Numbered from the stretch's first letter, positions 1 to 47,703 are shown. The stretch: 50,359 bases of DNA from Candidatus Bathyarchaeia archaeon (GCA_049512075.1 JBEKXL010000016.1:1-50359); one strand, 5' to 3'. Notes: a model not told the origin generated them from the sequence alone. Numbers and translations: made by a program.

Positions 1-125
1 AACCCGTTGATTTGCCATCTTAGCGCGCGGCCAAGATTTGCCCAGAAAACAAGCCCATATCCAACTCGAAAAGACAAAAGAAGAATAAAAACCATTTTTA
101 ACCATTTTAGGGACAAGCCAGCGCG

Positions 126-392
126 CTAAACGTACAGCTTAGACGAACCTGAAAAATACGTCTCGTCGGAGTACACGAGGACTGGAAGCCCGAAGCCTGT
201 TCCTTCTCCAACGGCTTCTGTTCCGTTGACGACCAGAATGAGGGCCTTCTGCAGGTCAGCTATCTTCAGGTTGCGCGGCTCCGTGCTTGCGTAGAGGCGG
301 AGGGACACAGGGTCTGACAGGGAAAAGGTGTGCGTATCGACATGCTGAAGGTTATGGTAAGACTTTCGAGTGGCAGATAGGTTCGCAGACAT
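126..392 (-). pseudogene. Probably truncated archaeal hypothetical protein
   Basis: 88-aa ORF with a protein-like core (ADLQKALILVVNGTEAVGEGTGFGLPVLVYSDETYF). It stops at a TAG that overlaps GCGCGC (121-126). Truncation is inferred, not proven. Confidence 0.45.
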
Positions 393-515
393 TCAGAAAT
401 CACTTGTTCATTCATGGAACGGTTACACGTTCTTTTGAGCCTTGCCTTTCTTAAACTTTTAATACTCAAGGCATATTGAGGCTAATTGTAATGAAGCAGC
501 AGGAAGAATCATGGT

Positions 516-983
516 ATGCAGGAGAGAGTGAAGGTAGGCGACAAGTTCAGGGACTTCAGTTTGGAGGACCAGAACGAAGAGGTGTTTACTCTTTCGAAGT
601 TTAAGGGAAAGAGGGTTTTGCTTTCGTTCCATCCTTTGGCGTGGACTTCCGTGTGTTCTGAACAGATGAAGTCTCTGGAAAAGAATAAGGAGGCTTTTGA
701 TTCTCTCAACACGATAGCCGTTGGCGTTAGCGTTGACACTGTGCCATCGAAAAAGGCCTGGGCAAAAAGCTTGAACATCGAGAACACGAGGCTGCTGTCG
801 GATTTCTGGCCGCACGGCAAAGTCGCGGAGACCTACGGCATTTTCAGGAGCAAGTACGGGACCTCAGAACGTGCCAACATCATCATTGACGAAAATCAGA
901 AAGTCGCATTCGTCAAAGTCTATCCAGTCGAGCAGCTTCCGGACATAAAAGAAGTCACAGAGGCTCTCAGGAAACTGGGTTAG
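516..983 (+). CDS. Peroxiredoxin (AhpC/TSA family, AhpE/BCP-like)
   Basis: FHPLAWTSVC matches the PxxxTxxC peroxidatic motif; also LLSDF and ERANIIID. Confidence 0.9.
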   Translation: MQERVKVGDKFRDFSLEDQNEEVFTLSKFKGKRVLLSFHPLAWTSVCSEQMKSLEKNKEAFDSLNTIAVGVSVDTVPSKKAWAKSLNIENTRLLSDFWPHGKVAETYGIFRSKYGTSERANIIIDENQKVAFVKVYPVEQLPDIKEVTEALRKLG

Positions 984-987
984 ACGT

Positions 988-1386
988 TCACTTCTTGAAG
1001 TACTTCTTCAGGGGGTCCCAGTAGAAGTCTGTCCATCCCTGTGCAACGTCTGCGGCTTGTTCAGCGGGAACGCCAGAATGGACCATGGAGAGTTCCGTGC
1101 CGCCCTCTGCCTTTTTGAAATTGAGCTCCAGCCTTGACGGAGGTTGACCTTCGGGCCACTCTGTGGTCATCCACTCTTGCACTATTCTTTTTCCCCGTTC
1201 CAGTTCCAGGTTTTTCCCGGAGATGTACCCATCCCACGCTGTGAACTGTCCTCCGACCTTTGGGTCGCAGGTGGCTTTGCTGCCGGTGAACTTTGAATGT
1301 TTTTTCGCGTCGACGAAAGCTTCATACACCTCGGTTGGCGTGGCGGGTATGAGCACTTTCTGCCTTATCGTCTCAGTTTTCACCAT
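988..1386 (-). CDS. SRPBCC/Aha1 C-terminal-like (AHSA1) domain protein
   Basis: VYEAF..FTG..GGQF..WDG.ISG..RIVQEW...GWTDFYW pattern. Confidence 0.85.
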   Translation of the reverse strand: MVKTETIRQKVLIPATPTEVYEAFVDAKKHSKFTGSKATCDPKVGGQFTAWDGYISGKNLELERGKRIVQEWMTTEWPEGQPPSRLELNFKKAEGGTELSMVHSGVPAEQAADVAQGWTDFYWDPLKKYFKK

Positions 1387-1599
1387 GAAGAACCTCCTTG
1401 CATCAGATCAGAAACCTCTGGCTAACATGAGGGAAGGGGTATGTAAGCGTTAGGATTCAAGGCCTTTGCTTTTGAGTGCCTAATTCGCGACTTCTTGTGT
1501 GCTCAGTTGGGGATTTGTGGGAAGGGTGTGGGGAAGGGTCGGAGCGGTCGGGGTGGTGGGAGCGGTTCTGGTTCTATGTCAAGGTTTGCTGGGAATCTC

Positions 1600-2529
1600 T
1601 CAATCATCTTCTTCACTCTCGGCTACGGTTGGGGTTATGGTGAGTTGCATCAGTTTTTCTTCGCGGAGTATTAATAGCGTTGTCTTTTTTCCGATGACGT
1701 CTTCGGTTAGGAGTCTTGGGAGGTCGTAGAAGGTTGTTACGGGTTTTTCGTTGAACTTCACTATGACGTCGCCCATTGTTAGACCGGCCTTTTTGGCGGG
1801 GGCGCCCTGTTCAACTTGGAACACCATTACGCCTGAGTCTTGATCTATGCGTGCCTGGCTTGCGATTTCTTGCGGGATCGAAACGGTGTTGGACACTATG
1901 CCCAAGTATGCCCTTCTGAGCTTCCCTCCGGACATGAGTCTGTCAGCGATGTTTTTCACCTTGTTCGCGGGGATGGCTATACCTCGAGACCAAACGTACG
2001 CCGTGTTTAGACCTATCACCTTGCCGGAAACGTCTATGAGCGGTCCGCCTGAGAAGCCTGGGTTGAGTCTAGCGTCGGTTGCTATCACGTTTTCCATGGC
2101 GGTTCCTCTCCAGCCTCTGAGCGTAGCGCCGACGCTGGTGATTATGCCCGTTGTTGCGGTCGGTTGCCTGTTGAAGGGATTGGCAAGGGCAAGAACGAAC
2201 TGGCCTGTGCTAAGCTTGTCCGAATCTCCGAATTCCACGGGTTTGAAGCGTCCCTCTTCAGCCTTCAGCAGTGCCACGTCAGAGTATGGGTCAAAGCCAA
2301 CGAGTTTGGCTTCAAGGCTTTTTTCGCCGAGGCCTATCCTGACCTCAGCGCTTCTACCAAGAACATGGTTGCACGTTACTATGTAGCCGTCTGCCGTCAA
2401 GACGACGCCTGTGCCTCTTGTCATCCTCGAGTTCACGTTGACCACGGAGGGTGCGAGTTTCTGAACGAGTTCGCTGGTAGCGTCCGAAAGCGATTTCAAA
2501 ATCTGTAATGAACTGATTTGATTACTCAT
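1600..2529 (-). CDS. HtrA/DegP-like trypsin serine protease with one PDZ domain
   Basis: Triad motifs VTCNHV, SDVALL and LNPGFSGGPL; C-terminal PDZ (YLGI..PAKKAGL..GDVI); no signal peptide visible. Confidence 0.9.
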   Translation of the reverse strand: MSNQISSLQILKSLSDATSELVQKLAPSVVNVNSRMTRGTGVVLTADGYIVTCNHVLGRSAEVRIGLGEKSLEAKLVGFDPYSDVALLKAEEGRFKPVEFGDSDKLSTGQFVLALANPFNRQPTATTGIITSVGATLRGWRGTAMENVIATDARLNPGFSGGPLIDVSGKVIGLNTAYVWSRGIAIPANKVKNIADRLMSGGKLRRAYLGIVSNTVSIPQEIASQARIDQDSGVMVFQVEQGAPAKKAGLTMGDVIVKFNEKPVTTFYDLPRLLTEDVIGKKTTLLILREEKLMQLTITPTVAESEEDD

Positions 2530-4354: not shown

Positions 4355-4606
4355 TTTCACCAACCAGATGATACAGCCCTGCAGGCTATTAAGCGCCACG
4401 ATCTGATGTTTCACAGACAGAAAATTTCAATCCATTTTTGCCGGTTGCAGATATTTGAGTCAAGGAACAGATATTGCGCGCGTTTCGAGTCTTTATGGTG
4501 AATTAAGCTGCGATTTTTCGAGACTCGGCTTCACGGCCGGTTGATTCAGGACACGCTAAGAATCCTAACCATGCGTGCTCAAAGCCTATCCTCGGAATCT
4601 AATGTA

Positions 4607-4984: not shown

Positions 4985-5123
4985 GAGTTCACCACATATC
5001 TGCCGTAGATACTTCGTTGCTATTTAACTTTAGCGCGCTTCAGTGCAAAAACCTGTTTGATAACAAGAATTATCTGCACACAGAGATACATATTGGAATC
5101 GGAGGCAGGTTTGGCTGGAAAAG

Positions 5124-5966
5124 TTGACCAAGGTCGAGTTCACAAACCTGGACAAGATACTATATCCTGAGGGAAGGGTCACTAAGGCGCAGGTAATTCA
5201 ACACTACATCAGAATGGCTCCCAGAATGCTGGGCATGTTAAAGAACAGGCCGATAGTTTTGACGAGATTTCCAAACGGCATTGACAAACAGGGCTTTTAC
5301 GAGAAGGATATGCCTCTGGGCACTCCCCATTGGGTGAAGACTTTCAGGAAATACTCTGAAACCGCCGAACGGGAAATAAACTATGTTGTGTGCAACGACT
5401 TGGACACGCTGGTCTGGCTTGCCAACCTCGCAGCTTTAGAGCTTCACATGACACTTTCCAAGATGGACGAATTTGAGAAGCCAGACCTCCTCGTTTTCGA
5501 CGTTGACCCTGAGCCGCCAGCAAGTATGGACGACGTAGTCGATGTGGCGTTAATGCTGAAGACGAAGCTTGACGGCTTAAGCCTTAAATCTTACGTGAAG
5601 ACTTCCGGAAAAAAAGGCTTGCATATTCTTGTTCCCATAGTTCGCGAGTACACGTTCAATCAGACGAGAGAACACGTGCACCAAATCGGAAGGTATTTGG
5701 CCAGAGAATCTCCCGTCGTCGTCTCAGAGTTTTCCAAGCCAAAAAAACCCGGTACCGTTTACATTGATTATCTGCAGAATTCTCATGGAAGAACCATGGT
5801 GTGCCCCTACAGTCTAAGGGCCACGCCACGAGCAACGGTTTCTATGCCGTTGGACTGGAGAGACGTCAAGAAAGGGTTAAAGCCAGAGGAATTCACTTTG
5901 TCAGCGGTTGCCAAGTCTGAGAGCAACCCATGGAAGGGAATGCTTGAAGACAAACAGAAACTCTGA
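5124..5966 (+). CDS. ligD: Stand-alone LigD polymerase/primase domain (NHEJ PolDom)
   Basis: TNLDKILYP, RFPNGI..FYEK, FDVDP (DxD), KTSGKKGLH, YIDYLQN, PYSLRA. Confidence 0.92.
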   Translation: MTKVEFTNLDKILYPEGRVTKAQVIQHYIRMAPRMLGMLKNRPIVLTRFPNGIDKQGFYEKDMPLGTPHWVKTFRKYSETAEREINYVVCNDLDTLVWLANLAALELHMTLSKMDEFEKPDLLVFDVDPEPPASMDDVVDVALMLKTKLDGLSLKSYVKTSGKKGLHILVPIVREYTFNQTREHVHQIGRYLARESPVVVSEFSKPKKPGTVYIDYLQNSHGRTMVCPYSLRATPRATVSMPLDWRDVKKGLKPEEFTLSAVAKSESNPWKGMLEDKQKL

Positions 5967-5978
5967 GAAGAGTGTGGA

Positions 5979-6791
5979 TTGATGGAAGAAGAACCAATGG
6001 AAGAAGCAAATGCACGAATTCCTAAGAGACCGTTTTGGAGTGGGGCTGTGACAATAGGGCTGGTCAACGTGCCGGTTAAGCTTTACACGATGACGTTTGA
6101 CAAGGCTTTTTCTTTCAGGTTTCTTCACAAACAGGATGGGCAGCCCCTGAAGTATCAGAAGGTGTGCGTTAAAGACAACGCAGTCGTTCCTTGGGAAGAC
6201 ACTGTGAGAGGTTATGAAGTGAGCAAGAACCGCTTCATAGTTTTCCAGAAGGAGGAGCTTGACGCCGCGAGACCGCAGTCGAGTCAGAAAATCCGCATCG
6301 ACAAGTTTGTGGACTACCTCTCTATCGATCCGATATACTTTGAAAGATCATATGTCCTCACGCCTGACAAGAGCAATGAAGCCTACAGCTTACTCTTGAC
6401 GTCCCTACAGAAAACGCACAAGGCCGGAGCGGGAAGAATCACTCTGAGAACGAAGGAGTATCCTGTCTTGTTGCACGCTTACAAGGGAGCCTTGGTGCTG
6501 ACCACGCTTCGATACGCCTACGAGATTTCAGATCCGAACAACTTCGAAGAACTGAAACGACTCATGGAACCGGAGAAGAAAGAGTTAGACCTCGCCGTGA
6601 AGATAATAAACGATCTTTCAGGCGAGTTTGACATAACGGAATACGAGGACACCTACGAGGAGAGGATCCGGAAACTGATTGCAAAGAAGCTCAAGGGTGA
6701 AACAATCGTCGCTGAAAAACCCGTGAAAGAGGAAGCCAAGGAGCTCATGGCAGCCCTGCAAGAGACGCTCAATCAGCTGAAGAAACAATGA
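5979..6791 (+). CDS. ku: Prokaryotic Ku DNA end-binding protein
   Basis: WSGAVTIGLVNVPVKLY, F.FLH, RGYE, IDPIYFERSY, YEDTY, LMAALQETL. Confidence 0.95.
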   Translation: MMEEEPMEEANARIPKRPFWSGAVTIGLVNVPVKLYTMTFDKAFSFRFLHKQDGQPLKYQKVCVKDNAVVPWEDTVRGYEVSKNRFIVFQKEELDAARPQSSQKIRIDKFVDYLSIDPIYFERSYVLTPDKSNEAYSLLLTSLQKTHKAGAGRITLRTKEYPVLLHAYKGALVLTTLRYAYEISDPNNFEELKRLMEPEKKELDLAVKIINDLSGEFDITEYEDTYEERIRKLIAKKLKGETIVAEKPVKEEAKELMAALQETLNQLKKQ

Positions 6792-8191
6792 GACAGCAAT
6801 ACAGGCCAATGCTTGCACAGCACGCTGAAAAGCCTTTCAATTCAGAAGATTGGATATTCGAGGTCAAATGGGATGGCATAAGGGCCATAAGTTACGTTGA
6901 CGGCGGACTTAGCATTAGAAGCAGAAACAACAAAGAACTGAGATATAATTTTCCCGAACTTGAAGAGTTGAAGAAACTGACAGAAAACGCGGTGATTGAC
7001 GGTGAAATAATCGTCATGAAAGGTGGCAAGGCCGACTTTCAGGCGCTCGCGGAAAGAAGCAAAACCACTTCGATTGAAAACGTTAAGTATCTGTCGCAAG
7101 CGTCACCCGCAAACTACATAGTGTTCGACATGCTAGAGAAGGACGGGGACCCTCTTGTTGAGCTTCCACTGATGGAGAGAAAGAGACTTTTGAAAGAGTA
7201 CGTGCGCGAGGGAAGCTTTGTTGTGCTGTCCGCATTTGTGGAAACAGAGGGGGAAGCGTACTACAAGGTTGCCTTGGCGAAGGGCATGGAGGGCATGATG
7301 GCCAAGAAAAGAGACAGCCAATATGAGCCCGGAGCCAGAAGCGCAAACTGGTTAAAGATTAAACCCATCCTCACGTGCGACTGCGTAGTCTTTGGCTACA
7401 CGGTCGGCGAGGGCGCGAGAAAGCCGACCTTTGGAGCGCTGATTCTGGGACTGTTTGGCGAAACGGGACCTGTCTACGTGGGTAAAGTGGGAACCGGCTT
7501 CAACCGAGAAGACTTGGAGTCAATGTTGAAAATGTTTGTGCCCCTGCAAGTCAAGGATAAGACTCTTGAAGGGGTTGTTTCCCTGGAAGAGATAGTTTGG
7601 TTAAAGCCTGAAGCCGTTTGCGAGGTGGCTTATCAAAACGTTACCAAGGATGGCAGACTGCGCATGCCCCGATTTCTTGGACTTAGAAAAGATAAGCTTC
7701 CTTCTGAGTGCACGTTGGATCAGATAACCCAAGGCAGGCTCGAACCGTACGTTTCGAGGAGAGATTTCGGCGTCACGCCTGAACCATCGGGGACTGTAAG
7801 TTCTGAGAAGGAAGGGCGGGCATTTGTCGTTCAGGAGCATCATGCGAGAAGACTTCATTACGACTTGCGGTTGGAGAAGGACGGCGTGCTGAAAAGCTGG
7901 GCCGTTCCAAAGGGGATACCGGAGCAGTCGGGCGAGAAAAGGCTCGCCGTGGAAACGGAGGATCATCCGCTGAAATACCGGAGTTTCGAGGGAACCATAC
8001 CGGAAGGACAGTATGGCGCGGGCACGGTGAAGATATTTGACAGCGGGACATACGAAACGAAGGTTTGGAGTGAAAACATGGTGGAGGTCACTCTCCACGG
8101 CCAGAGACTACGTGGCAGGTATGTGCTGGCACGCTTCAAGAAGGCAGGGGAGAAACAGTGGCTACTCCTGAAGGCAAAAGAGGCAGAATAG
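6788..8191 (+). CDS. ligD: ATP-dependent NHEJ DNA ligase with C-terminal 3'-phosphoesterase (PE) domain
   Basis: Ligase motifs EVKWDGIR, DGEI, FDML, EGMMAK, WLKIK and an OB fold, then PE signatures RDFGVTPEP, QEHHARRLHYDLRLE, KSWAVPKG, EDHP..Y, YGAG. ATGA overlap with ku. Confidence 0.93.
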   Translation: MRQQYRPMLAQHAEKPFNSEDWIFEVKWDGIRAISYVDGGLSIRSRNNKELRYNFPELEELKKLTENAVIDGEIIVMKGGKADFQALAERSKTTSIENVKYLSQASPANYIVFDMLEKDGDPLVELPLMERKRLLKEYVREGSFVVLSAFVETEGEAYYKVALAKGMEGMMAKKRDSQYEPGARSANWLKIKPILTCDCVVFGYTVGEGARKPTFGALILGLFGETGPVYVGKVGTGFNREDLESMLKMFVPLQVKDKTLEGVVSLEEIVWLKPEAVCEVAYQNVTKDGRLRMPRFLGLRKDKLPSECTLDQITQGRLEPYVSRRDFGVTPEPSGTVSSEKEGRAFVVQEHHARRLHYDLRLEKDGVLKSWAVPKGIPEQSGEKRLAVETEDHPLKYRSFEGTIPEGQYGAGTVKIFDSGTYETKVWSENMVEVTLHGQRLRGRYVLARFKKAGEKQWLLLKAKEAE

Positions 8192-11976: not shown

Positions 11977-12087
11977 ATCTCCAAAATAGCAGTACGAGAG
12001 CAGATCGGCATGTTGTAGTTGGTTTCTGTCTTATTAACAATTACCAGCACGCGCAAAGGAGGCGCACAGGAAAACGGTCACTGCGCG

Positions 12088-12384
12088 CTACTTCGCAAAT
12101 AGAAAACCCAGTGCGAGGCCGATAAGGAAAGCCACGGAAGAATAGGGCAGGACGTTGAGCCAGCCGTGCCCAAGGTCGTATAGCTTGGGCAGAAGGTTCA
12201 TTGCCGCGGCGAAAAGGCCGCTGAAGGTCAGGCTCAAGATGCCGGTGGCGACTAGGACTATGACAAGTGCGACGACGAGTATCATAAGCTTCAAAGCTTT
12301 CTTTATGACAGCACCCACCAGCAAGCCTATGATGAACGGTAGGACAACCGGGACTATCCAAGCGACCTCAGGAGGGATTGACAT
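12088..12384 (-). CDS. FUN14-like small membrane protein
   Basis: IGLLVGAVIKKALKLMILVV..L..TG and a C-terminal F..G.ALGF. Start placed at ATG 12384. The stop overlaps GCGCGC (12083-12088). Confidence 0.65.
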   Translation of the reverse strand: MSIPPEVAWIVPVVLPFIIGLLVGAVIKKALKLMILVVALVIVLVATGILSLTFSGLFAAAMNLLPKLYDLGHGWLNVLPYSSVAFLIGLALGFLFAK

Positions 12385-18314: not shown

Positions 18315-18635
18315 CTACCGTTTTTTGACTTTTTTGTTGTCGAGTTTCTTGTTTCGCTTTTTGAAAAACCATGGGTATCGTTCCATGTCCTCGCATATTG
18401 GTCGTGGCATACGCCCTGTATATGCATCTGGATGTCCATCAGGCGACACTATCGGATACTTCAGTTTGACATTTCTGATTGTAACCCTGTAGACCATGTA
18501 AACGGAAAAGACAAAAGCTCCAGTAGCTACAAGCAGATAAAAGTAGAGTCCAGCAGCCGTAAAACCCATCATTGGCAAACTGTATATGAACATAACTAAA
18601 AGTAGGCCCCACAGGAACCTTGACTTTCTGTTCAC
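18315..18635 (-). CDS. Small two-TM hypothetical protein
   Basis: Two hydrophobic helices and a basic tail. Confidence 0.55.
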   Translation of the reverse strand: MNRKSRFLWGLLLVMFIYSLPMMGFTAAGLYFYLLVATGAFVFSVYMVYRVTIRNVKLKYPIVSPDGHPDAYTGRMPRPICEDMERYPWFFKKRNKKLDNKKVKKR

Positions 18636-18802
18636 ATGTTCCCCCGCAAGGATAATTGGGGCAAACCTTGCTTATACGCTTTGTCCGTAGACCGGGAACG
18701 GCAATCTGACCAGCAAATCTCTGACGCCGAACAAAACTTTCGCCGTCCTGAAGCCAAGCTTTATTTTCTAAGGACCTATTAATGACCCTCTAGACGACAG
18801 AT

Positions 18803-19192: not shown

Positions 19193-20097
19193 ACGGAACA
19201 AACGATATTCCAGAATTCCCCGAGTTCCGAAAACTAACATTTGAAGACAAAGCTCTTCTTGAGGCACTCTTCAAGGAGATGCAACCGCAGATTTCTGAGC
19301 TCACCTTCACAAACCTCTACGTGTGGAACGAGGCAGAACCAGTACAACTCTCACGACATAACAAAACAGCCTTGATACAACGCAGGAGAATACGCGACGG
19401 AAAGAACGTGCTCTTGCCCCCACTGACAAATGAACCAATCCCCACAGTGCAGGAAGACTTGAGGAAGGCAGCAGTTGCGAATCACTCCGAGATATTGCTT
19501 TATGGTATAGATTCGAAGCAGGCAGGGCAGCTCAGCGCGCGATATCGAGTTGAGCCGGACAGGGATAACTGGGACTACGTGTACCTCTCATCCGACCTAG
19601 CCGATCTTCCGGGCGATAAGTACCATTCCAAACGCAACTTCATAACCCGCTGCCTCGCTGACCACAAGTGCGAATACGCCAAGCTTGACGCCTCAGTCGT
19701 AAACGACTGCCTCCAACTTCAAACAGAATGGTGCAACCTCCGCCAATGCGGCTCCGTGCCAAGCTTGGAAGCGGAAAACAAAGCAATCAAAACAATCTTT
19801 GACAAATACCCACAGCTAGCCGTGTTCGGCGGCGCAGTCTACGTAGACGGCAAACTCGAAGCCTTCACCCTCGCAGAATCGCTCAACAACGACACAGCAG
19901 TCATACATTTCGAAAAAGCCAACCCCCAAATCACAGGCCTGTACCAACTCATCAACCAATGGCTCTGCCAAAACACACTTAGAACCTTCACATATGTCAA
20001 CCGCGAACAAGACCTCGGAATACCGGGCCTGAGAAAAGCAAAACTTAGCTATCATCCCCACCACATGATAGAAAAATACAGTGTAACCGTAACCTAA
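19189..20097 (+). CDS. DUF2156 protein (MprF C-terminal-like aminoacyltransferase fold)
   Basis: SELTFTNLYVW, DRDNWDYVY..DL..L.G.KYHSKRN, HFEKA, GLYQ.IN, YVNREQDLGIPGLRKAKLSYHP. Confidence 0.88.
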   Translation: MNGTNDIPEFPEFRKLTFEDKALLEALFKEMQPQISELTFTNLYVWNEAEPVQLSRHNKTALIQRRRIRDGKNVLLPPLTNEPIPTVQEDLRKAAVANHSEILLYGIDSKQAGQLSARYRVEPDRDNWDYVYLSSDLADLPGDKYHSKRNFITRCLADHKCEYAKLDASVVNDCLQLQTEWCNLRQCGSVPSLEAENKAIKTIFDKYPQLAVFGGAVYVDGKLEAFTLAESLNNDTAVIHFEKANPQITGLYQLINQWLCQNTLRTFTYVNREQDLGIPGLRKAKLSYHPHHMIEKYSVTVT

Positions 20098-20290
20098 CGC
20101 CGCGCTATATAAAAAAACGGAGAAGGCTGCCCTCAGCCTCATGCGCGCAAGTACGTCAGGAAGCAAGCGGCCGCTCATAGACAGCGCGTGTCAAGCTCAC
20201 AAACCATTCCTTCGCGGCATTTAGGCATTTTCGACCCAATGCTACACCAAAGTAGACTGCTCCAAGTGTGCGAAAACAGTCTTCCACGGC

Positions 20291-23200
20291 TCATGGAAGA
20301 CTTAACATTGATCCTTCGGTGGAGCGGCCGTGTTGCATCTGTATTTTCGAGTTCACGTTGTTGCTGCTGTTCGTTCGGGCAATTCTCTTCTTGCCGTTGC
20401 TCGGCCTGGACTTCTTCCCAGAGCTCATGAGTATAAACAGCGTGAGGATTAACCCTATCACGACTATCACGACGATGACGACCGCCCACGCAGCGTAAGC
20501 CCCAGCGGTCTGTGCCTGAGCTGACTGGACAGGCTGAGCGGGACCACTTGCCACAGTGACATTCTGACTCGTCGTCGCTGGCAGCCATGCTTGCCACCAT
20601 GGTATATCCCCCCACATGATATTCATCGGACCTACGCCATCTTTGATCTTAGTCAGGTGGTGCACGTTATCCTCTAGGCGCGAAATCTGAAAAGTTCTCA
20701 CTCTTGAAGTCTGGTCGCGGAAATCTCCTCGCCACATCTCCTTGCCGTCAGACGACCAAGCCAGGGCATAATCCTGCGTTCCATCACTCACGTAAAGGCT
20801 GCCGTTTTCTCCTCTGAACAGCGTGTTTTCGAACTCGTAGACAGCTATGTACCAGACGTATTCCGTTTGATTTACGGGCGCTTGTGAACTGGAAACTCCT
20901 CCCGCGATTATTTTTATCTCGTCCCAGACGACGCCGATGCTGTTGCTCTCAGAGGCATTCAGCCCGTACCGGAGATCAATTATTGAAGAAGCGCTTATCC
21001 ACGCCTTGTCTACGTGATCGCGTGTGACACTGTCGTTCAATATGACACTGCCCAGGAACGGTGTCCCGTCAAGCTCATAATAGCTACTGTTCCACGATAT
21101 GTTGGCCGCCGAGCCAACATCCACATAGTTGTCGTTACCCATGGAAAGAACAACTTTAACGCGATCCCAAGCAATCGTCACATTTGGCACAGTCTGAGCA
21201 AAGGATGTTACAAAGTTAAACTTCACGCCAACGACCGTGAACGTCGTTATTGCAGGTTTTGAACTGTTGACAACGAATCTCGCCCAACCGTTCGTGTCCA
21301 CTGGCTGATAAGTGCTGCTGGCGTTGATTCTTATCGAGCCGCCAACGGCGCTTGAGCCATTGATAGCCCACTCTGCGTGGAAAGCGACAACCTGCGGTGC
21401 GCTCACGTCAACGCGATTCGGCCATTGGGCGGTAGCCGAAGAGTTGTCGATTATTATGGTCACCACCGCGAAGGTTATTATAACAGCCCACTGAGGCACT
21501 GTTCCACTGGAATTTACTGCCATCTCTGCAATGTAAAGACCGGGATCTGTGCATTTGTGCGTGTCAATGTTCACGATTACATGTATCGTTTGGCCTCCAG
21601 GCAGGACTCCGCCAACAGGGTTTATGGAGGTTAACCAAGGTCCATCTTTGATCCGGGTCAGGTTCCAAACGAGGGGCTCTTCGGTAGCAGCGCTGAGGTT
21701 CGTTACGTTGAAGCTAACGCTGAAAGTCTGGTCTCCCGAAACAGCACCCTGGTCGATGCTACAAGGGTCGAAAGGAATCGGATTGGCAGCATTTACGAGC
21801 ATTTGAGGAAGTTCCTTCACGTAAGTAGAATTGGAGCTTGGCCCAGCCTGGATTCCCGCGTAGTCAATCGCAGTTACGTTAAACACCAACGTCGTGTTTC
21901 CCGGCTGCCTAGGAATAGTCGCCGTGTAGTTGCCGTTGACGCTGTTAACATAGGTCATTTGAGCTGTCCACCAGGTGCTGTTGTTCACTGGATAGGACGC
22001 GAAAACCTCATAGACCCCGCTAGCATTCACATCTTCGGCAACGGTTGCGTACACAATGACCAGTTGGCTCTCGTTCACGTCAACTGGAAAATACAACGTG
22101 TTGATGATTTTTGGCGGAGTCATGTCATCGACTAAGTACGGGAATGGGATGGGGTAGCTAGTTGTGTTAAGCCAGCTAGCTCCATTAGCAAGGACAGAAA
22201 CAGTATATCTGACCGTCGTGTTGTAAGCCGCGCGCGGTATAGTAAACGTTACAGTGCTACCAGATGCTTTGCCCGTGATCTGTCCATGAATAGTTCCGCT
22301 TGCATTCGTATAGTCCACGTAGAGGCTTGCATTGACAATCGTGACGAACTTCAAGGTTGTTGCCGTCACGGTGACATCATTTTTGTATTCCACGCTTTTG
22401 TCGAACACCTGCGAGATGACGTTACCGTGGATGAGTGACGGGCTCTGACTCACATTCTGTATGAGAAACAAAGGATAATGGTCAACGCCGCTTTGGCTTA
22501 TCATGTACGGTTGGTCGCAGATGCCGTCTGGGAAAGGCCATGTAGCTTGGGAAAGACCAGAGTTGGAACCTTGGTCCTGGTGAGGACCCGAGCGGACATC
22601 TGTGCAGTTTGCAAAATTACTCCAATAGTTTCCTCCTCCCGTTTTGTTCGCAGGCGCGTAGGGGTAACCATCATCCCACATGTTCGTCAGTCCATCGTCT
22701 AACGCCTGCTGACTGTTACTCACGAACCGATTCCCGTATATCAGGCTGTTAGCAGCATTCTGTCCGCACTGCAGGCCCACAGTGTTACGTATTATGGTGT
22801 TGTTGTTCACGAAGTTTCCTTGGCCTGAAATGACATTGACGCCAATCTGGTTTGCCTGAATAACGTTATCTGTTATGGTTGAGTTGGAACCTGCAACTCG
22901 GATTCCGTCGCCAAGCCCGGAAACTATCAGGTTATCTGTAACGGTATTGCCCAAGCCGGTCACGCTGACCTGTGCCCCGTTTATCGCTGAGTTCCTAATC
23001 GTGAAGCCGTACACTGTTACGTTAGAGCAGCCCATCAAAGAGATTCTAAAGGGCATTGTGGTCTGAAACTTCCCGTCGACGATCGTGGTGCTTACGTCTT
23101 GTCCGACAAGCCAAATGCCGCTCTTCTCCGGCCCTATCGTAACACTGTCAAAGTAGATTCTCGGCGTCACGTACACGACATCCCCGGGGCTTGCCGCGTC

Positions 23201-23983: not shown

Positions 23984-24031
23984 CTTTCTGTACTCTTAAG
24001 GTGGTACTATTTGGATAGATAACACTTGTGA

Positions 24032-24053
24032 AACTTTTTTCTAGATAAAAGTT
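24032..24053. promoter_or_regulatory. 22-bp near-perfect palindrome upstream of the surface-protein gene
   Basis: AACTTTTTTCTAGATAAAAGTT has one mismatch and lies about 50 bp upstream of the start at 23983. Confidence 0.45.
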
Positions 24054-24147
24054 CTCGTCCCCCGACGTTCACAGACGGGACTCTTAGACTCCAGTTGCAT
24101 ATGTCTGTGCTCGGCTATGCCTAGTGCGAACAGAGCGTGTCTCTGTT

Positions 24148-27732: not shown

Positions 27733-27812
27733 AATCTTACGCTATTGCGCGCACTGCCCATCTTCTGACCCTAAGAGGTCGATGTCTGAGTGCGCGGATG
27801 AGCGGAAACCCA

Positions 27813-27825
27813 TAGCGCGCGCTTT
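27813..27825. repeat. Dispersed (GC)n motif copy TAGCGCGCGCTTT, identical to 47155-47167
   Basis: Identical 13-mer with palindromic core AGCGCGCGCT; this copy abuts the kinase stop codon. Confidence 0.7.
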
Positions 27826-32210: not shown

Positions 32211-32659
32211 CTACTCGGTTTTTCTGACGTACTCGACTTTTTGTTTCATATTGTTTTCTACTTTTAGGGCTGAAATGAAAGGCTCGCCCAGCTCATTCAG
32301 TACTTGTTCTTTTCTTGGTTCGCAGCAGGCCTTTTGCCTCAACGAACACTGCGTAAGCGTTGAACGTGTCTGTGACGATTACGTTGTCGTCTGCGCAAAC
32401 ATCTGATCGGTCGATCGATATAGTCTGTGGCGGCGACCATGTCGGCGGATAGTATGTTGATGCTAAAGGTCTTGTTCTCATGAATACCCTTGTTTGTGTG
32501 GTGACCTTTGTCCGAGGATATTCCTACCATGTCTGGCTGGAAATCCACCATGTTGAACCATGCGATCGTGTTGAAGTTGGGTTTTCCCGCAACGTTTGCG
32601 CCGAGCAGACATATTGGCATAGGAAACAGCGGATGTTCACTGGCTATTCTGCTCATCAT
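32211..32659 (-). pseudogene. Truncated flavin reductase (flavoredoxin-like) N-terminus joined to an unrelated, frameshifted fragment
   Basis: LFPMPICLLGA...KPNF.TIAW...HTNKGI.ENKTFSINI...TDY matches the family, and the match ends near 32419 at TCGATCGA. Confidence 0.7.
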
Positions 32660-32801
32660 GTGGAATAATCCTCTTCTGATTTGTGTGGTGTACGAGAAGT
32701 GTGCGGGTTGCTACTTAAGACTTAACTCTTCCTCAAACATGCGTATTCGTTCCGACTTGCGGGCTCTAGCGTGTTGGAGATTCAGATAACTCTGGGGCAA
32801 G

Positions 32802-35531
32802 CTAATGCTGTGGCGGTGGTAGTGGAGCAACTCTTCTCTTTTTCACCACTGTAATCAATGCTGCTGATACTACGACGAGCATGGCAATCGCGATGAGGAT
32901 TGGCAGGATGTTAAGGATGAGTGTTGTTTGTGAACCGCCGGTTGTGGTCTGTGATATGAGTTTGGCGGAAACGCTCGTGGTATTCCCGTTGGTTGTGACT
33001 GTGAGCGGGGGTAATGAGTTGATGGTTTCTGGCGGGTTGAGTGATAGTTGAGCGACCGTCCCGTTCACGACGGGGACGCTTGGATATGAGAATACTGTTG
33101 TTGTTCCGGCCCTCGTGATATTGATGGTCATCGTGAAAGTCCCGGCGTTGGTTCCGTTGAGGAAAAGTGTGTATGGGACTGAGCTGTTCTGGATAGACGC
33201 GTATTGGATGCCATCTTGGTCGAGGAAAGTTCCTTGGGGTAGCATCTCAAGGATGGTTCCGTTGTAAGTGTCACATCCCATCATTCCGCCGTTCTGGTCC
33301 AGGATTTCGAGGTTAGCGTTTGAGTGGATAGTCAAATCAACGCTTTCAATCGAGTGCAAGCCTAGGCTGCTGGGAGCGTACAAGAAATCTTCTGGGCTCA
33401 ATGTGGTGCCGTTGAGAAGGTTCCACACGATTGCCTGAGCCTTTCGGTTCTTTGGCAGATCGCCGTGTGCGGCTGAGTCGCCGAATAGTGGAGTTGGGTT
33501 TGTTCTCACGTAGTATGTGGCTGTTGCTGCGCTGTTTTCGGCGCCCCAGAGCGGAACGGTGCCGTCGCCATCGCCGAACTGGGGTATGAGAACGACATTT
33601 GCTCCGTTGATGTTTACGGTCATGTTCTCTGCTAGTTCTTCAGGGGTTGGACCTCTCACGGTGTAGCCGTTGAGTGTCTGTGTGCCATAGCCTATTATCG
33701 TGTAGAGTTTGACCTCTGATGGAAGGACGGGGCTGCTGGGTGAACCCAGGAGGGCGTTAAACGCGTACGACTCGTGCAGCACTGCCGAGTTGAATTGCCA
33801 CGGAGTGTCTGAATAAGCGGCCCTGTACGTGATGTCAAAAGTCTGGTCGAGTGGGAAGTAGCCTCCGGAACCTGATCTTAGGATGAACGGTGTTTTCGGG
33901 AGCAACTCGTAGACGGCTGGCCACTCCTGCATCATGGATTTCATTTGTTGCAGATCGGCAAAGCTGTTTCCGAGAGCGTAGCCTTCTGTGAGGGCGTAGT
34001 AGACTTTGGGCGAACCCCAGAAGGGTGTTCCCATCGTTATTATGCTGTCCACTTTTGCGGCTCTCGCGGGGTCAGAATTAACGTAGGCTGTTGCAATCAG
34101 CCCTCCCATGCTGTGAGCGATAAGTATGACTTTCTGTGAGTCATTTGTCACTCTGGCCTGGTTTACAAGTTTGTCCAGCTCGTCCAAGTGCAGCGTGTTG
34201 TCGAGTCTCCAGTCGTATGGGAAGACGAACAGGCTGTTTCCTTCGACGTATCCTTTGGATTCCAGGAAGCTCACGAGGTCACCGTAGAAGTCGGACAGCC
34301 CGGATCGCAGAATGTCGCTGGCGTATATGCAGACGTTGGGATCTGCAGGCGCTGTGCCGTCAGAGTTCAGTCGGAGGGCGCTCATATCCACTTTCGTTGC
34401 CAATTGCCACAGATGCGTTACAACTTGGGGTATGTGCGTTCCGCTGGGTGCGGGCCAAACCTCGTCTGCGCGGGTCCCGCTCCAAGTGTCCAGCTCTGAG
34501 CCTCCCACTCCAGGTATGATTATGACAGGAAGATGCGCGGTGGAGTTGGTTGTAGGCGGTGGAGTGACTCCGGACGGCGAGACTACGATTGTCATGTCAA
34601 TTGATGCTGAAGTTGAAGCAAGCATTTGGGGAGTGGCATAGTTGGAGAGCGTGTTCGTTCCTGTGTAATTTACGATGAAAGTGTAGAGCGCTGGAGTGTT
34701 TCCGTAACTGACGTATTGGTCCACTGCGTCAAACGCCCAGGTGAAGTTGAAGTCTCCGCTTGAGTCTGTGGGAAGGCTGAAGGCGTCCTCCCATAGGCTT
34801 CCGTCCATTAGAATCTTGGATTCGACGGTGGCTTTAGGAGGGAAAACCTGTCCTGTTAGCGCCACGTCGGCTTCTCCATTGTGATTGTCGATGGGCTGTG
34901 GGAGTGTGATAGTGCCTGTTACGTTGCTGTTCAGAGTGATAATCGGTATTTCGTGGATTAATACTTCAAAAGTGTGCCCGTAATAATAGTCTGGATATCC
35001 ACCGGGGCATCCGTCTGGACAGGCAGGTTGGCCGTAGACCACAGTGATCGTGTGTTCGGGATTCCCATCAGCGGGGTGCGCAAGATCAAGAGTCTCTGTT
35101 ACAAAGAGCTGGGTGTCAGTGCCGTTGACCGTCTGCCAATCATCGTCGACAGCTACGGACATGTGGTTGTACACGCCAGCCGTGCTGCCTCCAAACGGGT
35201 TGGATAGTGCGGTTGCTTGGAAGGTTAGTGAATGGTCTGCGGATGCGATAAACTCGTAGTATCTGCTACCGTAGGGATCAAGGGGGATAGCTGGGTTTCC
35301 TCCCACGAACTCCACTCCGTCCAGAGTGATTGTTACTATCCCTGTGTTGGTCTGGTACGTCCCCGTAACGGCGGTCGCTGCAACGCCTGAGGCAGATGTA
35401 GCGGTCCTTAGTGCCGTGCGGTCAGAAGACGGCGCATGGTCAGCTGCAGGAAAAGAAATGAGGGGACTCATGAGAATGATGAGCAATATCGGAATCGTCA
35501 ATCTCGCATAGGTTGGCTTGGAGCGGTTCAT
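32802..35531 (-). CDS. Secreted, C-terminally anchored alpha/beta-hydrolase (LCAT/PGAP1-like lipase or acyltransferase)
   Basis: IIIPGVGGSEL, FPYDWR, IAHSMGG (nucleophile elbow), GTPFWGS, GDGTVP, H.DL; signal peptide; C-terminal TM + KKRR. Confidence 0.85.
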   Translation of the reverse strand: MNRSKPTYARLTIPILLIILMSPLISFPAADHAPSSDRTALRTATSASGVAATAVTGTYQTNTGIVTITLDGVEFVGGNPAIPLDPYGSRYYEFIASADHSLTFQATALSNPFGGSTAGVYNHMSVAVDDDWQTVNGTDTQLFVTETLDLAHPADGNPEHTITVVYGQPACPDGCPGGYPDYYYGHTFEVLIHEIPIITLNSNVTGTITLPQPIDNHNGEADVALTGQVFPPKATVESKILMDGSLWEDAFSLPTDSSGDFNFTWAFDAVDQYVSYGNTPALYTFIVNYTGTNTLSNYATPQMLASTSASIDMTIVVSPSGVTPPPTTNSTAHLPVIIIPGVGGSELDTWSGTRADEVWPAPSGTHIPQVVTHLWQLATKVDMSALRLNSDGTAPADPNVCIYASDILRSGLSDFYGDLVSFLESKGYVEGNSLFVFPYDWRLDNTLHLDELDKLVNQARVTNDSQKVILIAHSMGGLIATAYVNSDPARAAKVDSIITMGTPFWGSPKVYYALTEGYALGNSFADLQQMKSMMQEWPAVYELLPKTPFILRSGSGGYFPLDQTFDITYRAAYSDTPWQFNSAVLHESYAFNALLGSPSSPVLPSEVKLYTIIGYGTQTLNGYTVRGPTPEELAENMTVNINGANVVLIPQFGDGDGTVPLWGAENSAATATYYVRTNPTPLFGDSAAHGDLPKNRKAQAIVWNLLNGTTLSPEDFLYAPSSLGLHSIESVDLTIHSNANLEILDQNGGMMGCDTYNGTILEMLPQGTFLDQDGIQYASIQNSSVPYTLFLNGTNAGTFTMTINITRAGTTTVFSYPSVPVVNGTVAQLSLNPPETINSLPPLTVTTNGNTTSVSAKLISQTTTGGSQTTLILNILPILIAIAMLVVVSAALITVVKKRRVAPLPPPQH

Positions 35532-35980
35532 ACCACTTTCAATACTCCGGGCAAGTGCTTCTGGAAGAGCTCTTCTGCGGTAGCAAAGGACTCTGTAGCA
35601 TGTTCTTCCACGGAGTTTAACAGTAGAAGCTTGTATGATTTGCCCGATTTCAGGTCTATAGTGATGTGTCCCTTGGAGAGGAAGCGGGGAGGCTTGAGTT
35701 CAACTAAGAGAATCTGGTCTACACTGACATCCAGCTTCTTGTTGCTATTGTCGAGTTGCTCGACTGTTCTAGGAGTCGTGTCGAGAAACGGGGTGACTTT
35801 GGCAGTGAATGAGCCAAAAAGTGAGCCCGCATTCATGTTCCAGCCTAGTCCCATATGGCTCTTTTCTTTTGTTACGATCAGCCTCTTATCGGTTAGGTGG
35901 ACTCCGTATGATTGATCCAAGGCAAGCCCTCGCCGAGTTGCTAAGGCGCTGCTTGAAAACCCCCCTTGATATGATTCCAT
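35528..35980 (-). CDS. Hypothetical protein, PH-like fold possible
   Basis: YGVHLTDKRLIV...I..VELK.P.....G.ITI; ATGA overlap with the hydrolase start. Confidence 0.6.
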   Translation of the reverse strand: MESYQGGFSSSALATRRGLALDQSYGVHLTDKRLIVTKEKSHMGLGWNMNAGSLFGSFTAKVTPFLDTTPRTVEQLDNSNKKLDVSVDQILLVELKPPRFLSKGHITIDLKSGKSYKLLLLNSVEEHATESFATAEELFQKHLPGVLKVV

Positions 35981-36180
35981 ATGATATGACAGCCTTTCCG
36001 AGTGATTCCTCAACTCGTGGAACTGCCTATCGCTAGAGAGCCAATATAAAAAGTATGATTCCAGAATACAGATTGTCGAACTAGGTTGTTCAAGAACGCT
36101 CGTGACCCTGCAGAGCGCGCGGTTTTGGAAACAGATATTAGCTCTGGGCTTTTTTGTTTATTGTCTGGGTTGCGTGGGCT

Positions 36181-38215: not shown

Positions 38216-38300
38216 TGGAACCTGACAAGCAAGATTGAGATCGCGCGTATGCTATTTCTGTTTTCTAGAGCACACTAAGAAAAGGCGCGCGCTTCTGTTT

Positions 38301-38834: not shown

Positions 38835-38987
38835 ACAGGTTCACCTCTCCTCCCAACGTGCAAACCCAGACCTATTTGGGAAGTGAAGGGTAAGAAGCTT
38901 CCCATATCAACAAGAGACGGACAAGCTGCTTTCCGCGCTCTCCCCTTCAGAAAAACTGTGGCGCGCGCGTCTTGGTTGGCGAAAGAT

Positions 38988-41271: not shown

Positions 41272-41391
41272 ATGTCCAAGTTTGAAGCGGAAGTCAAGAA
41301 GATAGTCGAGGTCTTGGGTTTGAAATGGGCACCTATTGCGGCACGGTTTTCCATGGAGAACGATGAAATTCTCGCGCGCGCGATTTCGTGA
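41272..41391 (+). pseudogene. N-terminal remnant of a DUF169-like protein
   Basis: MSKFEAEVKKIVEVLGLKWAPIAARFS resembles DUF169 N-termini (L.L...PVA..F). The match ends at the palindrome TCGCGCGCGCGA (41372-41383). Confidence 0.55.
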
Positions 41392-41919: not shown

Positions 41920-42066
41920 GATCGTGCCTATCCCTGCAACAGAACACCTCTCTCGCCGTTTCGGAGAGCTGAAGCGTGCGCGTTCTTGTGACGATCGGAC
42001 GGATACTCTGCCCCAGTACGGTCGTCTGAAGGCATCACATGTTGCTTTGGTGGAGAGAACTATCAG

Positions 42067-43738: not shown

Positions 43739-43962
43739 CAGTAGCGCGTTCATTTTGAGACCGCGGTTCTAACGCGCGCTAGAGCGTTGCAAAGTCGAAT
43801 TGTTTGTGCTAATTTCTGCTTACCTTCCAAGCACGGTTGCATTCTCATCAAACTCTACATACCATGTCATGGATGTCGGTCCAACCCAATGTGATCAACA
43901 GGTTCATGTCAATTCCCCGAACTCAGCAACACGCTAGCGCGAATACGTGTTCGGCGCGCGCG

Positions 43963-44195
43963 GTGAATGATTGCACGATGGCCGCGCAGAACATGATACT
44001 GCAGCCTACTCGATGGGTATTGGGAGTTGCTGGATCGGTTTGCTGATAAGCATAGCGAACGATCCGAAGGTGAAGAAGGAACTGAGCATCCCAGACGATC
44101 ACGAGGTGTATTCCGAGCTAATCTTTGGAATCCCTAAGGGAAAAACGAGTTCGTCGCTGAGACGGCCACCCCAAATCCTTAAACGGATTGACTAG
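43963..44195 (+). pseudogene. C-terminal remnant of a nitroreductase, frameshifted near 44000
   Basis: VNDCTMAAQNMI, frameshift, then AAYSMGIGSCWIG...LIFG.P. The N-terminal half is absent and the match starts right after GCGCGCGCG (43954-43962). Confidence 0.8.
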
Positions 44196-44240
44196 CCATT
44201 ATCTAACTGTAGTAAGAGGCAGAACTGAGGAATAGTTTTC

Positions 44241-46146: not shown

Positions 46147-46290
46147 TCTTTGCACATTTTCCGGCGCTTTCTTCGCGAACCGACTGATATGGGGAGTACC
46201 GCTAAGTCGGGTCATGAAACCGCGTCAGTAGACTTATATGCGAAGATTCATCTAGAGGAAAATCACAGGCGCGAGTGGTTAAGTTGGGAG

Positions 46291-47019
46291 ATGAGGGTTA
46301 TGGCTGATGTCTTGAAAATTATTCAGCAGAGACGGTCAATGAGGGTCCCTTTTGATCCGAATCGTCCGGTGTCCAAGGAGAGCCTGAGGCAGATCCTGGA
46401 GGCGGCGCGCTGGGCGCCGACGGCTCATAACATGCAGAACTTCGAAATTCTAGTCGTTGATGACAAGGAGGTTCTGGAGAAGATTGGAAAAATCAAGTCC
46501 CGTGTGTCGGAAGCGTTCATCCGTGAGAACTACCAGCAGCTGTCATCCTCGGAAGAGGAGTTGCTTCAGAAGAAGGTCGGAATCCTCGGCACCAATTTTC
46601 CGCCGGATTGGAGGGATCCTGCCAAGCTGGACAAAGCTGTTCGTGAAAGCGCACCTTCGCCCCTGAACCAACGCATCACGGGCAGTCCGCTACTGCTGAT
46701 AGTGATTTATGATTCTAGAAAGAGAGCGCCTGCTTCCGACGGAGATGTTTTGGGTTTCATTAGCTTGGGTTGTGTCATGGAGAACATGTGGCTTATGGCC
46801 CAGTCGCTTGGGATAAGCGTTCACATATTGAGCGTGTTCAGTGGAGATGCCGTGGAAAAAGAGGTGAAGCGGATTCTCAACGTCCCCGAATACATGAAGA
46901 TTGCTTTTGTCATCCGTCTGGGATACCCCGTCTCCAGGCCGGCTAAACACCTGAGAGTGCGTCGTGACATGGAAATGCTCACGCATCATAATAGGTTTGG
47001 GAACAAGGGCTTTAGCTGA
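46291..47019 (+). CDS. Nitroreductase family protein
   Basis: RRSMR, ARWAPTAHNMQ, MENMWLMA.SLG, RLGYP. Start is 46291 or 46300. Confidence 0.9.
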   Translation: MRVMADVLKIIQQRRSMRVPFDPNRPVSKESLRQILEAARWAPTAHNMQNFEILVVDDKEVLEKIGKIKSRVSEAFIRENYQQLSSSEEELLQKKVGILGTNFPPDWRDPAKLDKAVRESAPSPLNQRITGSPLLLIVIYDSRKRAPASDGDVLGFISLGCVMENMWLMAQSLGISVHILSVFSGDAVEKEVKRILNVPEYMKIAFVIRLGYPVSRPAKHLRVRRDMEMLTHHNRFGNKGFS

Positions 47020-47154
47020 GGAAACCCTGTCTTGTTTTCACGATTCCCAACCAGGGTATTTAGGAAAGAAGCGTTAGAGGATAGATTAGCTGGTTTGCGA
47101 AGAGGAAGTTTGAGCCGTTGTTGGAATGAGGGCGAACTTGCAAGTTTTAGGTAT

Positions 47155-47167
47155 TAGCGCGCGCTTT
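47155..47167. repeat. Dispersed (GC)n motif copy TAGCGCGCGCTTT, identical to 27813-27825
   Basis: Identical 13-mer, intergenic between the nitroreductase and RAM-domain genes. Confidence 0.7.
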
Positions 47168-47287
47168 GCTCAGTGCCTCGGCCTTGAAGCCAAATTTCTC
47201 GTAAAGATTTTTTGATCTCGCCTGACTAACTCTTTGAGTAACAGATTTATGCACTGGAACAGACTACAGTTTCTTGAGGAAGGCAAT

Positions 47288-47590
47288 TTGGAGGCTTTCA
47301 TTCTAGTTAACACGGATGCTGGTGTCTTGTGGCAAGTTCTGGAAGCTGTGCTCAAGATTGATGGTGTGAAGACCGCATATGGGGTGACAGGACAGTTCGA
47401 CGCGGTGGTCTTGGCACAGTTTTCGGATTTGGACTATCTGGGGAAGATGATTGAGAGAATCCACCACGTGAAGGGAGTGCTTCGAACTCAAACTTTGATG
47501 ACCATTCCGGGCCCTGCGGGAACAGGCAGCGTGATGCCGAGCTTGCCTGAAGAAGAAAGGATGGGGCCCAACGGCTATCCTGACAGGTGA
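47288..47590 (+). CDS. Lrp/AsnC ligand-binding (RAM) domain-only protein
   Basis: AFILVN....V...V..I.GV..AYGVTGQFD.......I..I..V.GV..T.TL; TTG start after GAGGAAGG. Confidence 0.8.
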   Translation: MEAFILVNTDAGVLWQVLEAVLKIDGVKTAYGVTGQFDAVVLAQFSDLDYLGKMIERIHHVKGVLRTQTLMTIPGPAGTGSVMPSLPEEERMGPNGYPDR

Positions 47591-47703
47591 ACATTTAATG
47601 CGCACATAACGCGGGCAAACCAAGACTAGTGCGCGCGTAATAACCAAGTGCGGGCTCCATGTTTAACCTGATTGAACTGATGATTGGTGCTTGTTTCTGG
47701 AGG

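Follow-up and report, generated by a model that had tools for sequence, protein, structure and literature searches.

Alternating GC runs at deletion and insertion junctions in Bathyarchaeia: probable scars of DNA end joining

Contig C16 of a Candidatus Bathyarchaeia archaeon assembly (G000; 2.73 Mb in 86 contigs, 47.5% G+C), analysed here over its entire 50,359 nt and hereafter called the window, carries dispersed alternating GC runs, defined throughout as (GC)≥3, i.e. at least 6 nt. Comparison with a sister species placed such runs at many of the junctions where one genome holds a segment that the other does not, and we consider it probable that (GC)3–5 runs are scars of DNA end joining at deletions and insertions, not a signal that steers these events. 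Where DNA is lost, or where foreign or displaced DNA is inserted, the ends would be sealed by a newly made alternating GC stretch of 6–10 nt, often flanked by TA. A first-pass annotation of the window had instead taken the motif for a pre-existing signal that directs the shuffling of gene modules, or for a methylation or protein-binding mark.

GC runs mark the junctions between sister genomes

The window is collinear, at ~94% identity, with the genome of a sister species, G002. Its EF-1-alpha matches Bathyarchaeia records only, the nearest being L001, which is contained in G002 (99% amino acid identity), followed by L003 (96%) and L002 (93%). The part of G002 aligned to the whole of G000 amounted to 1.52 Mb (mean identity ~92.7% before filtering), from which 331 blocks covering 1.05 Mb were kept, with 181 collinear junctions. 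Clean indels, defined by a short side of at most 15 nt and a long side of at least 20 nt, numbered 84, and a (GC)≥3 run was present at the short-allele junction in 26 of these (binomial p = 1.6e-16), while control rates for a run this close were 3.6–4.0% at random non-coding positions, 3.4% just outside genes, and 1.1% at any position. At the 96 junctions with unrelated DNA in both genomes, a run lay within 12 nt of 74 of the 384 boundaries (p = 3.9e-29). The replaced segments span 43 bp to 27.7 kb. The expectation that the motif would coincide with indel edges and homology breaks between relatives was thus borne out, including within the window, where 9 of the 13 internal junctions with G002 have a run at most ~25 nt away and a further run marks the left end of the alignment (121–126).

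We defined filler as the junction nucleotides left after exact-match extension from both flanks. Filler of at least 5 nt belonging to neither flank occurred in 30 of the 84 clean indels, and when 6 nt were added on each side, an exact alternating run of ≥6 nt was found in 15 of the 30, of ≥5 nt in 22, and of ≥4 nt in 24; only 3 of 49 indels without filler carried such a run. Examples of filler include GCGCGCGC, TAGCGCGCG, TCGCGCGCGCGTT and AGCGCGCGCACA, along with variants such as GCGCACGCG. Both ends of the long allele are free of runs in 18 of the 26 GC-type events, which implies that the run was written in by the event itself.

A second class of indels displays direct repeats or microhomology of 1–46 nt. 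Several long alleles of insertions with direct repeats of 5–46 nt have a run at the joint between repeat and insert, and these look like insertions with filler. The long-allele segments do not form one mobile family, as they are mutually unlike, and an excision footprint of a TA-flanked transposon (Tc1/mariner or IS630 type) was rejected because the segments are unrelated, lack shared ends, and contain fragments of ordinary genes. The direct repeats at indels vary from 5 to 46 nt, with no fixed target duplication.

Direction of the events

Of 35 GC-type events, 11 have a long allele whose boundary falls inside a called gene, and in four of these a Pfam domain (GNAT, methyltransferase, AcnX swivel domain, and VIT1) spans the boundary. 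Because these domains cross the breakpoint in the long allele, the corresponding short alleles are deletions. What is left in G000 is 21 residues of the GNAT gene and the last 73 residues of the methyltransferase gene, and in G002 the tail of the AcnX swivel gene, with 27.7 kb lost, and the tail of the VIT1 gene. A fifth gene-cutting event affects a DEAD_2 helicase that had been split beforehand. The longer allele is ancestral wherever polarity is readable, and both lineages are affected, G000 having the short allele in 15 of the 26 events and G002 in 11. Copies of the motif had been reported at the breakpoints of gene remnants, which fits these gene-truncating deletions that carry a run as filler; a pre-existing steering signal, on the other hand, does not fit the 18 of 26 events whose long, ancestral allele lacks a run.

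One GC-type replacement lies within an open reading frame (ORF). At 93838–97017 of contig C1 (L191 838–4017), G000 has a 1,059-aa ORF without Pfam match in which G002 swaps 313 nt for a 7-nt GC-type filler, a net change of −306 nt that keeps the frame intact. Here a gene may have tolerated the scar.

Enrichment, placement and shape of the runs

The window contains 31 overlapping GCGCGC matches, i.e. 25 separate (GC)≥3 loci, compared with a mean of 12.8 ± 3.4 and a maximum of 22 over 100 dinucleotide-preserving shuffles, none of which reached 31. Based on our own crude gene calls, from which 5 doubtful ORFs were dropped, 17 of these loci are in 8,378 nt of non-coding DNA (2.03 per kb) and 8 in 41,981 nt of genic DNA (0.19 per kb). 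The same bias was observed across G000, for which our similarly crude calls give a coding share of ~80%: GCGCGC density falls 11-fold, from 2.47 per kb in non-coding DNA to 0.22 per kb in coding DNA. Non-coding GCGCGC was observed 2,744 times on both strands, with 215 expected under an order-1 Markov model (~13x) and 508 under order 2, and the octamer GCGCGCGC 1,042 times, with 12, 45, and 196 expected under orders 1, 2, and 3 (~85x at order 1). The excess of this short palindrome therefore remains once composition is corrected for, genome-wide and in genic versus non-coding DNA. The concentration in non-coding DNA is presumably due to selection removing scars inside genes.

The counts of the first-pass annotation could largely be reproduced. 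All 17 non-coding or junction positions that it listed (23, 121, 4476, 5033, 12083, 18275, 20143, 27747, 27815, 36115, 38285, 38961, 41374, 43774, 43954, 47157, and 47631) carry GCGCGC, and the non-coding bias that it described stands, but its total of about six genic copies has to be raised to 8, those at 18951 and 27164 having been overlooked. The six GCGCGCGC octamers (27815, 38285, 38961, 41374, 43954, and 47157) are all outside credible genes, the one at 41374 being inside only a 62-aa ORF with a very low coding score. An extended form, said to occur in seven copies, exists as described but in eight, namely five of TAGCGCGC and three of its complement GCGCGCTA, with one copy (48339) genic, and TAGCGCGCGCTTT is indeed shared by two copies, at 27813 and 47155. 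The abutment or overlap of copies with stop codons was likewise seen, at 126 and 12088.

Maximal alternating runs of 6, 7, 8, 9, and 10 nt occur 669, 195, 284, 186, and 105 times in G000, respectively, and only 6 reach 11 nt or more. Non-coding cores are mostly G-first (GCGCGCGC 212 vs CGCGCGCG 25; (GC)5 76 vs (CG)5 13), and by our own arithmetic the runs of odd length fit even G-first cores with a chance adjoining C or G. The base preceding the core (−1) is A in 61% of cases and the one before it (−2) is T in 38%, and the flank profiles of 1,886 half-sites revealed nothing conserved beyond these two positions, so that the runs are not part of a longer repeat element. A repeat of the repetitive extragenic palindrome (REP) or bacterial interspersed mosaic element (BIME) type, or one resembling a miniature inverted-repeat transposable element, was ruled out accordingly, given no conserved element beyond the core and no hairpin or terminal repeats in the flank profiles. 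Samples of 200 kb from two other genera (G021 and G018) displayed the same length cap and the same TA flank.

Sites in the window and in other strains

The runs and replaced segments of the window, together with a repair locus discussed below, are as follows.

21..29: TAGCGCGCG, 20 nt from the contig start; no G002 alignment here.
121..126: GCGCGC at the left limit of G002 homology (first block starts at 128), overlapping the stop of the minus-strand ORF 126–392.
4476..4482: older run, matching GCGCGCG in G002 column for column.
5033..5038: older run (TAGCGCGC), identical in G002, 25–30 nt from an indel edge.
5124..8191, plus strand: archaeal non-homologous end joining (NHEJ) set of LigD-type Prim-Pol, Ku, and ligase with phosphoesterase (Pfam E-values 3.8e-83, 1.3e-40, and 1.5e-41/2.7e-37).
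12083..12088: older run shared with G002 that abuts a stop codon.
18316..18740: 425-bp segment, in place of which G002 has the filler CGCTCGCG(CGC).
20097..24122: replaced segment of 4,026 bp, vs 1,461 bp in G002, with GCGCGC at 20143.
27812..27822: filler ATA-GCGCGCGC where G002 has a 229-bp segment; bridged unchanged in X5, X6, and X8.
32221..36111: 3.9-kb segment with an LCAT-like hydrolase and 2 ORFs, absent from G002, present in strains X5 and X8.
36115..36121: GCGCGCG bordering the 3.9-kb segment on its right; at the empty site, G002 has A-GCGCGC-AC, and X8 lacks 5 nt at 36106.
38285..38292: GCGCGCGC where relatives carry a segment (575 bp in G002, with GCGC on each side).
38961..38969: GCGCGCGCG, decayed in G002 to GCGAGTGCG.
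41373..41382: (CG)5 at the right edge of the 302-bp stretch 41097–41398, where G002 has 41.4 kb.
43740..44013: 274 bp containing runs at 43773–43779 and 43954–43962; G002 has the filler GCACGCG instead.
47149..47164: filler AGGTATTA-GCGCGCGC where G002 has 1,018 bp.
47631..47637: GCGCGCG within the 67-bp stretch 47621–47687, where G002 has 953 bp.

The nine run-bearing junctions are 18315, 27811, 32220/36112, 38288, 41096/41399, 43739, 47148, 47620/47688, and, via the conserved run at 5033, 5063. At this last site (5063/5067), G002 is longer by 3,067 bp, and the sequence at the left end of this extra DNA is GCGCACGC. No run was found near junctions 8976, 16851, and 45014, and the run at 20143 lies 63 nt inside its replaced segment.

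Logan contigs from four other public sequencing runs (X5 to X8) were placed on window positions 26001–46000. With the GC run in place, they bridge 27815 (X5, X6, and X8), 36115 (X5 and X8), and 38285 (X6 and X7, with zero differences). Since these junctions are bridged in contigs obtained from other data, they are not chimeras of the G000 assembly, a possibility that had been raised for the window junctions. At 38283–38285, the long allele is found in a contig of X5 (723 letters, by subtraction), in one of X8 (739 letters), and in G002 (575 bp), while X6 and X7 have the short form; the X5 contig has 18 differences in the adjoining 7.7 kb (~99.7% identity). As X5, X8, and G002 all have the segment, the GCGCGCGC at 38285 is a recent deletion scar that is still polymorphic. 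A metagenome scan for this long allele returned a single contig, which matched the window at 100% identity across 9,843 nt and is hence not independent.

Pfam matches across 43 window ORFs correspond to ordinary metabolic, transport, and regulatory genes, and Rfam matched no family in the window besides one tRNA (40858–40970). This 113-nt tRNA gene, found by Rfam and missed by ARAGORN, probably contains an intron. Directly after it comes, in G002, a 41.4-kb stretch (contig 3, 75682–117124) absent from the window, the blocks on either side aligning window 38288–41096 to a G002 segment ending at D3 75681 and window 41399–43739 to one starting at D3 117125; an integrated element or a large deletion could account for this. 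The replaced segment at 20097–24122 encodes a 1,230-aa NosD/beta-helix protein (20291–23983, minus strand), and the 1.46 kb that G002 has in place of the segment is unrelated to it. At 8977–9485, a loss of 509 bp has removed most of a class I methyltransferase gene (9017–9670) from G002, the filler being TACTTTAG, one of the few without GC character. The NHEJ set at 5124–8191 is complete and arranged in an operon-like row, its ATP-dependent ligase being fused to a 3'-phosphoesterase, and a DUF72 gene follows it.

Phylogenetic distribution and search for an enzyme

The octamer GCGCGCGC occurs 646 times in G000, 168–460 times in four genomes of the same genus, and 128–464 times in eight other distinct genomes reached via EF-1-alpha loci of at least 90% identity. 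It is also frequent in G021 (439) and G018 (227), which represent two other genera, and rare (0–7) in most of the remaining relatives searched. Run counts around 80 EF-1-alpha loci had appeared patchy, which was misleading: by whole-genome counts, all genomes checked from the ≥90% loci (G041–G050) are motif-rich.

Protein families were searched with Pfam for seven families in the same 41 genomes. Ku (PF02735), C5-methylase (PF00145), PolX (PF14792), Prim-Pol (PF09250), and TnpB (PF01385) do not track the motif. Ku/LigD NHEJ was rejected as the cause, Ku being found in motif-poor G010, G020, and G040 and not found in motif-rich G003, G018, and G021 (93–98% complete); the remaining Ku carriers, of 6 among the 41 relatives searched, are G000, G002, and G004. 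The methylase search, which covered the C5 family, gave no match in G000, G001, G003, G004, G018, and G021. The PolX palm domain was not found, and TnpB is single-copy. Reverse transcriptase (PF00078) was detected in 0 of the 41 genomes, with control genomes matched.

The small primase subunit PriS (PF01896) was found in 37 of the 41 genomes, including all 30 of high quality, and in one copy in the motif-rich genomes. A second, short PriS-like gene (~250–300 aa) was observed in G006, G009, G010, G013 (30 copies), G014, G027, G031, G034, and G038. Its carriers are mostly motif-poor, and it was not found in motif-rich G000–G004, G018, and G021; since many motif-poor genomes are also without it, this gene does not explain the runs. 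Finally, subtracting from the G002 proteins of at least 200 aa with a G000 partner those with a match in 800 kb of motif-poor G012 left 311, many of them housekeeping proteins. Pfam scanning of 140 of these 311 yielded a list too noisy to single out an enzyme, the DNA-related members being topoisomerases, XPB with DUF790, a Clp1-like kinase, RtcB, DHH, and TatD.

Alternative explanations

The runs could conversely be pre-existing fragile sites, either prone to Z-DNA formation or targeted by a nuclease specific for GC palindromes, that provoke the breaks; in one variant, a cut leaving 5' overhangs within the palindrome, followed by fill-in and religation, would lengthen the run from GCGCGC to (GC)5. 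Consistent with this, a run is present at an end of the long allele in 8 of the 26 GC-type events, and in 10 of the 58 events whose short allele has none, over a baseline of ~4%. Conserved old runs stand beside newer events at 5033 and 36115, GCGC flanks the lost segment on either side in the G002 long allele at 38285, and in strain X8 a stretch including the 38961 run (38909–38981) has been replaced by 127 other letters. Fragility would, however, leave the origin of the run unexplained in the 18 of 26 events with no run at either end of the ancestral allele; the runs also never exceed ~10 nt, which is short for stable Z-DNA, and no C5-methylase partner was found, restriction enzymes not having been searched for. 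We thus regard fragile sites as an unlikely general cause. A tiny palindrome that inserts alone, with deletions arising later by recombination between nearby copies, appears less probable again. It would account for the 4 cases, two per genome, in which the presence or absence of a run is the only difference, as well as for 5 deletions in which the run acts as microhomology or the long allele is bordered by runs at both ends. Yet lone insertions (4) are far rarer than runs replacing a segment (26), the opposite of what this model predicts, as each deletion would need two earlier insertions; the runs also have no conserved flank or terminal structure, and TnpB neither is multi-copy nor tracks them.

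A HIP1-like functional signal under selection, serving for instance in termination, protein binding, or methylation, would be in line with the strong restriction of the runs to non-coding DNA and with their being closer to stops than to starts (143 vs 46 of the distance measurements of at most 20 nt). Conservation points the other way. Only 17 of 52 non-coding runs of at least 8 nt located inside alignments are identical in G002, compared with 8,113 of 15,910 control 9-mers (51%; Fisher p = 0.012), and 13 of the 25 run substitutions are C>T or G>A; the runs decay faster than neutral DNA. They are found in divergent, tandem, and convergent spacers alike (1.45, 1.86, and 2.11 per kb), G000 yielded no C5-methylase, and the only Rfam match of the window is its tRNA. 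A maintained signal is therefore very improbable. The runs do not look like the methylation or protein-binding mark initially suggested, and the analogy to HIP1 fails on both location and conservation. The contig ends of G000 are enriched in runs, with one found within 150 nt at 29 of 172 ends versus 7.3% of random 150-nt windows, as would be expected if the runs were artefacts of assembly or sequencing where strains differ. Such an origin can hardly be entertained in view of the contigs from four other data sets that bridge 27815, 36115, and 38285, of the 23 runs of at least 8 nt that are identical at orthologous sites of G002, a separate assembly record, and of the motif richness shared by genomes of several projects. 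Rather, assemblies seem to break at these strain-variable joints.

Several points nevertheless weigh against interpreting the runs as end-joining scars. Polarity is unreadable for most events, including 27811 and 32220 in the window, the outgroup G004 being too distant: its spacer has no homology to the 229-bp G002 segment, and the LCAT-like gene has no tblastn match in L003. A single genome pair was compared, covering 65% of the partner genome, and the gene calls are our own and crude. Among the fillers of at least 5 nt, 6 of 30 are unrelated to GC. In 8 of the 26 GC-type events, one or both ends of the long allele were already occupied by a run, and the run itself serves as microhomology in 5 deletions, which together indicate that some events start from old runs, so that a degree of re-use of old runs as breakpoints may accompany the writing of new ones. 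Lastly, no enzyme was found, none of the seven families following motif richness over the 41 genomes, and the tail-pairing step outlined below is one suggested by the sequence pattern alone.

A putative end-tailing step and its significance

How end joining might leave such scars can be sketched as follows. Each broken end would gain a short tail, consisting of an optional A or TA and then a G-first alternation of G and C. As these tails are self-complementary, any two ends could pair, and fill-in followed by ligation would leave (GC)3, (GC)4, or (GC)5. The cap at 10 nt would suggest a counted, primer-like product of a putative primase or polymerase. Extending this sketch, we tentatively raise the possibility that a clade of Bathyarchaeia has a dedicated DNA-writing repair step, in which an enzyme, perhaps a primase-like polymerase of altered habit, makes counted, G-first, self-complementary d(GC)3–5 tails or oligomers that act as universal sticky ends, joining any ends without homology or Ku.

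Should the runs prove to be repair scars, each genome of these abundant uncultured archaea of soil, peat, and sediment would hold a record of hundreds of deletions and insertions, and genome decay and gene flux could then be followed in the sequence itself. In annotation, the runs point to gene remnants and to joints that vary between strains, and contig breaks in metagenome assemblies coincide with them. If the tail-making step is true as well, it would constitute a new end-joining pathway whose natural scar, defined in its sequence, dates each deletion and insertion in these genomes, and for DNA joining, an enzyme able to add a defined self-complementary tail to DNA ends would hold practical interest.

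Comparison with known systems

Like HIP1 (GCGATCGC) of cyanobacteria, the runs comprise a short GC-rich palindromic octamer that is hugely over-represented and lineage-specific. HIP1 lies largely inside genes and is maintained, whereas the runs are non-coding, sit at indel junctions, and are lost faster than neutral DNA. Z-DNA-forming (CG)n fragile sequences similarly are alternating CG tracts associated with deletions; there, the tract pre-exists the break and is often lost with it, while the runs arose together with the event 18 times out of 26 and were present in the long allele in 8. Yeast mitochondrial GC clusters and REP/BIME elements are, like the runs, GC-rich palindromes in AT-richer spacers and at the endpoints of deletions or recombination, but they are structured, conserved elements of 20–50 nt, with a dedicated transposase in the case of REP, and only 6–10 nt are shared here. 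De novo telomere addition, or chromosome healing, also writes a fixed repeat on broken ends whatever the flank. It needs a reverse transcriptase with an RNA template, a family (RVT_1) detected in 0 of the 41 genomes, and the ends considered here are rejoined, not capped.

Double-strand break repair is poorly known in most archaea. The archaeal replicative primase PriSL performs microhomology-mediated end joining, extending and bridging ends without Ku, and primases start on a purine and make short products of counted length, a habit that would fit G-first runs capped at 10 nt. We know of no GC-alternating product of PriSL, and PriS occurs in almost every relative, those poor in the motif among them, so that its presence alone cannot explain why the runs are confined to this lineage. 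Filler or N-nucleotides at end-joining junctions are known from TdT, Pol mu, and Pol lambda in eukaryotes, from LigD/Ku NHEJ in bacteria and Methanocella, and from the templated insertions of polymerase theta. In the parts of the literature that our searches returned, no end-joining route leaving a fixed sequence was described, nor anything else relevant to the runs. As in NHEJ, the extra nucleotides seen here belong to neither flank and stand exactly at deletion and insertion junctions, and the scars accumulate where they are harmless. Known end-joining fillers, however, are variable or copied from nearby DNA; here, with Ku/LigD not tracking the motif and no PolX found, the filler is one stereotyped self-complementary word, (GC)3–5, whatever the flanks (22 of the 30 fillers).

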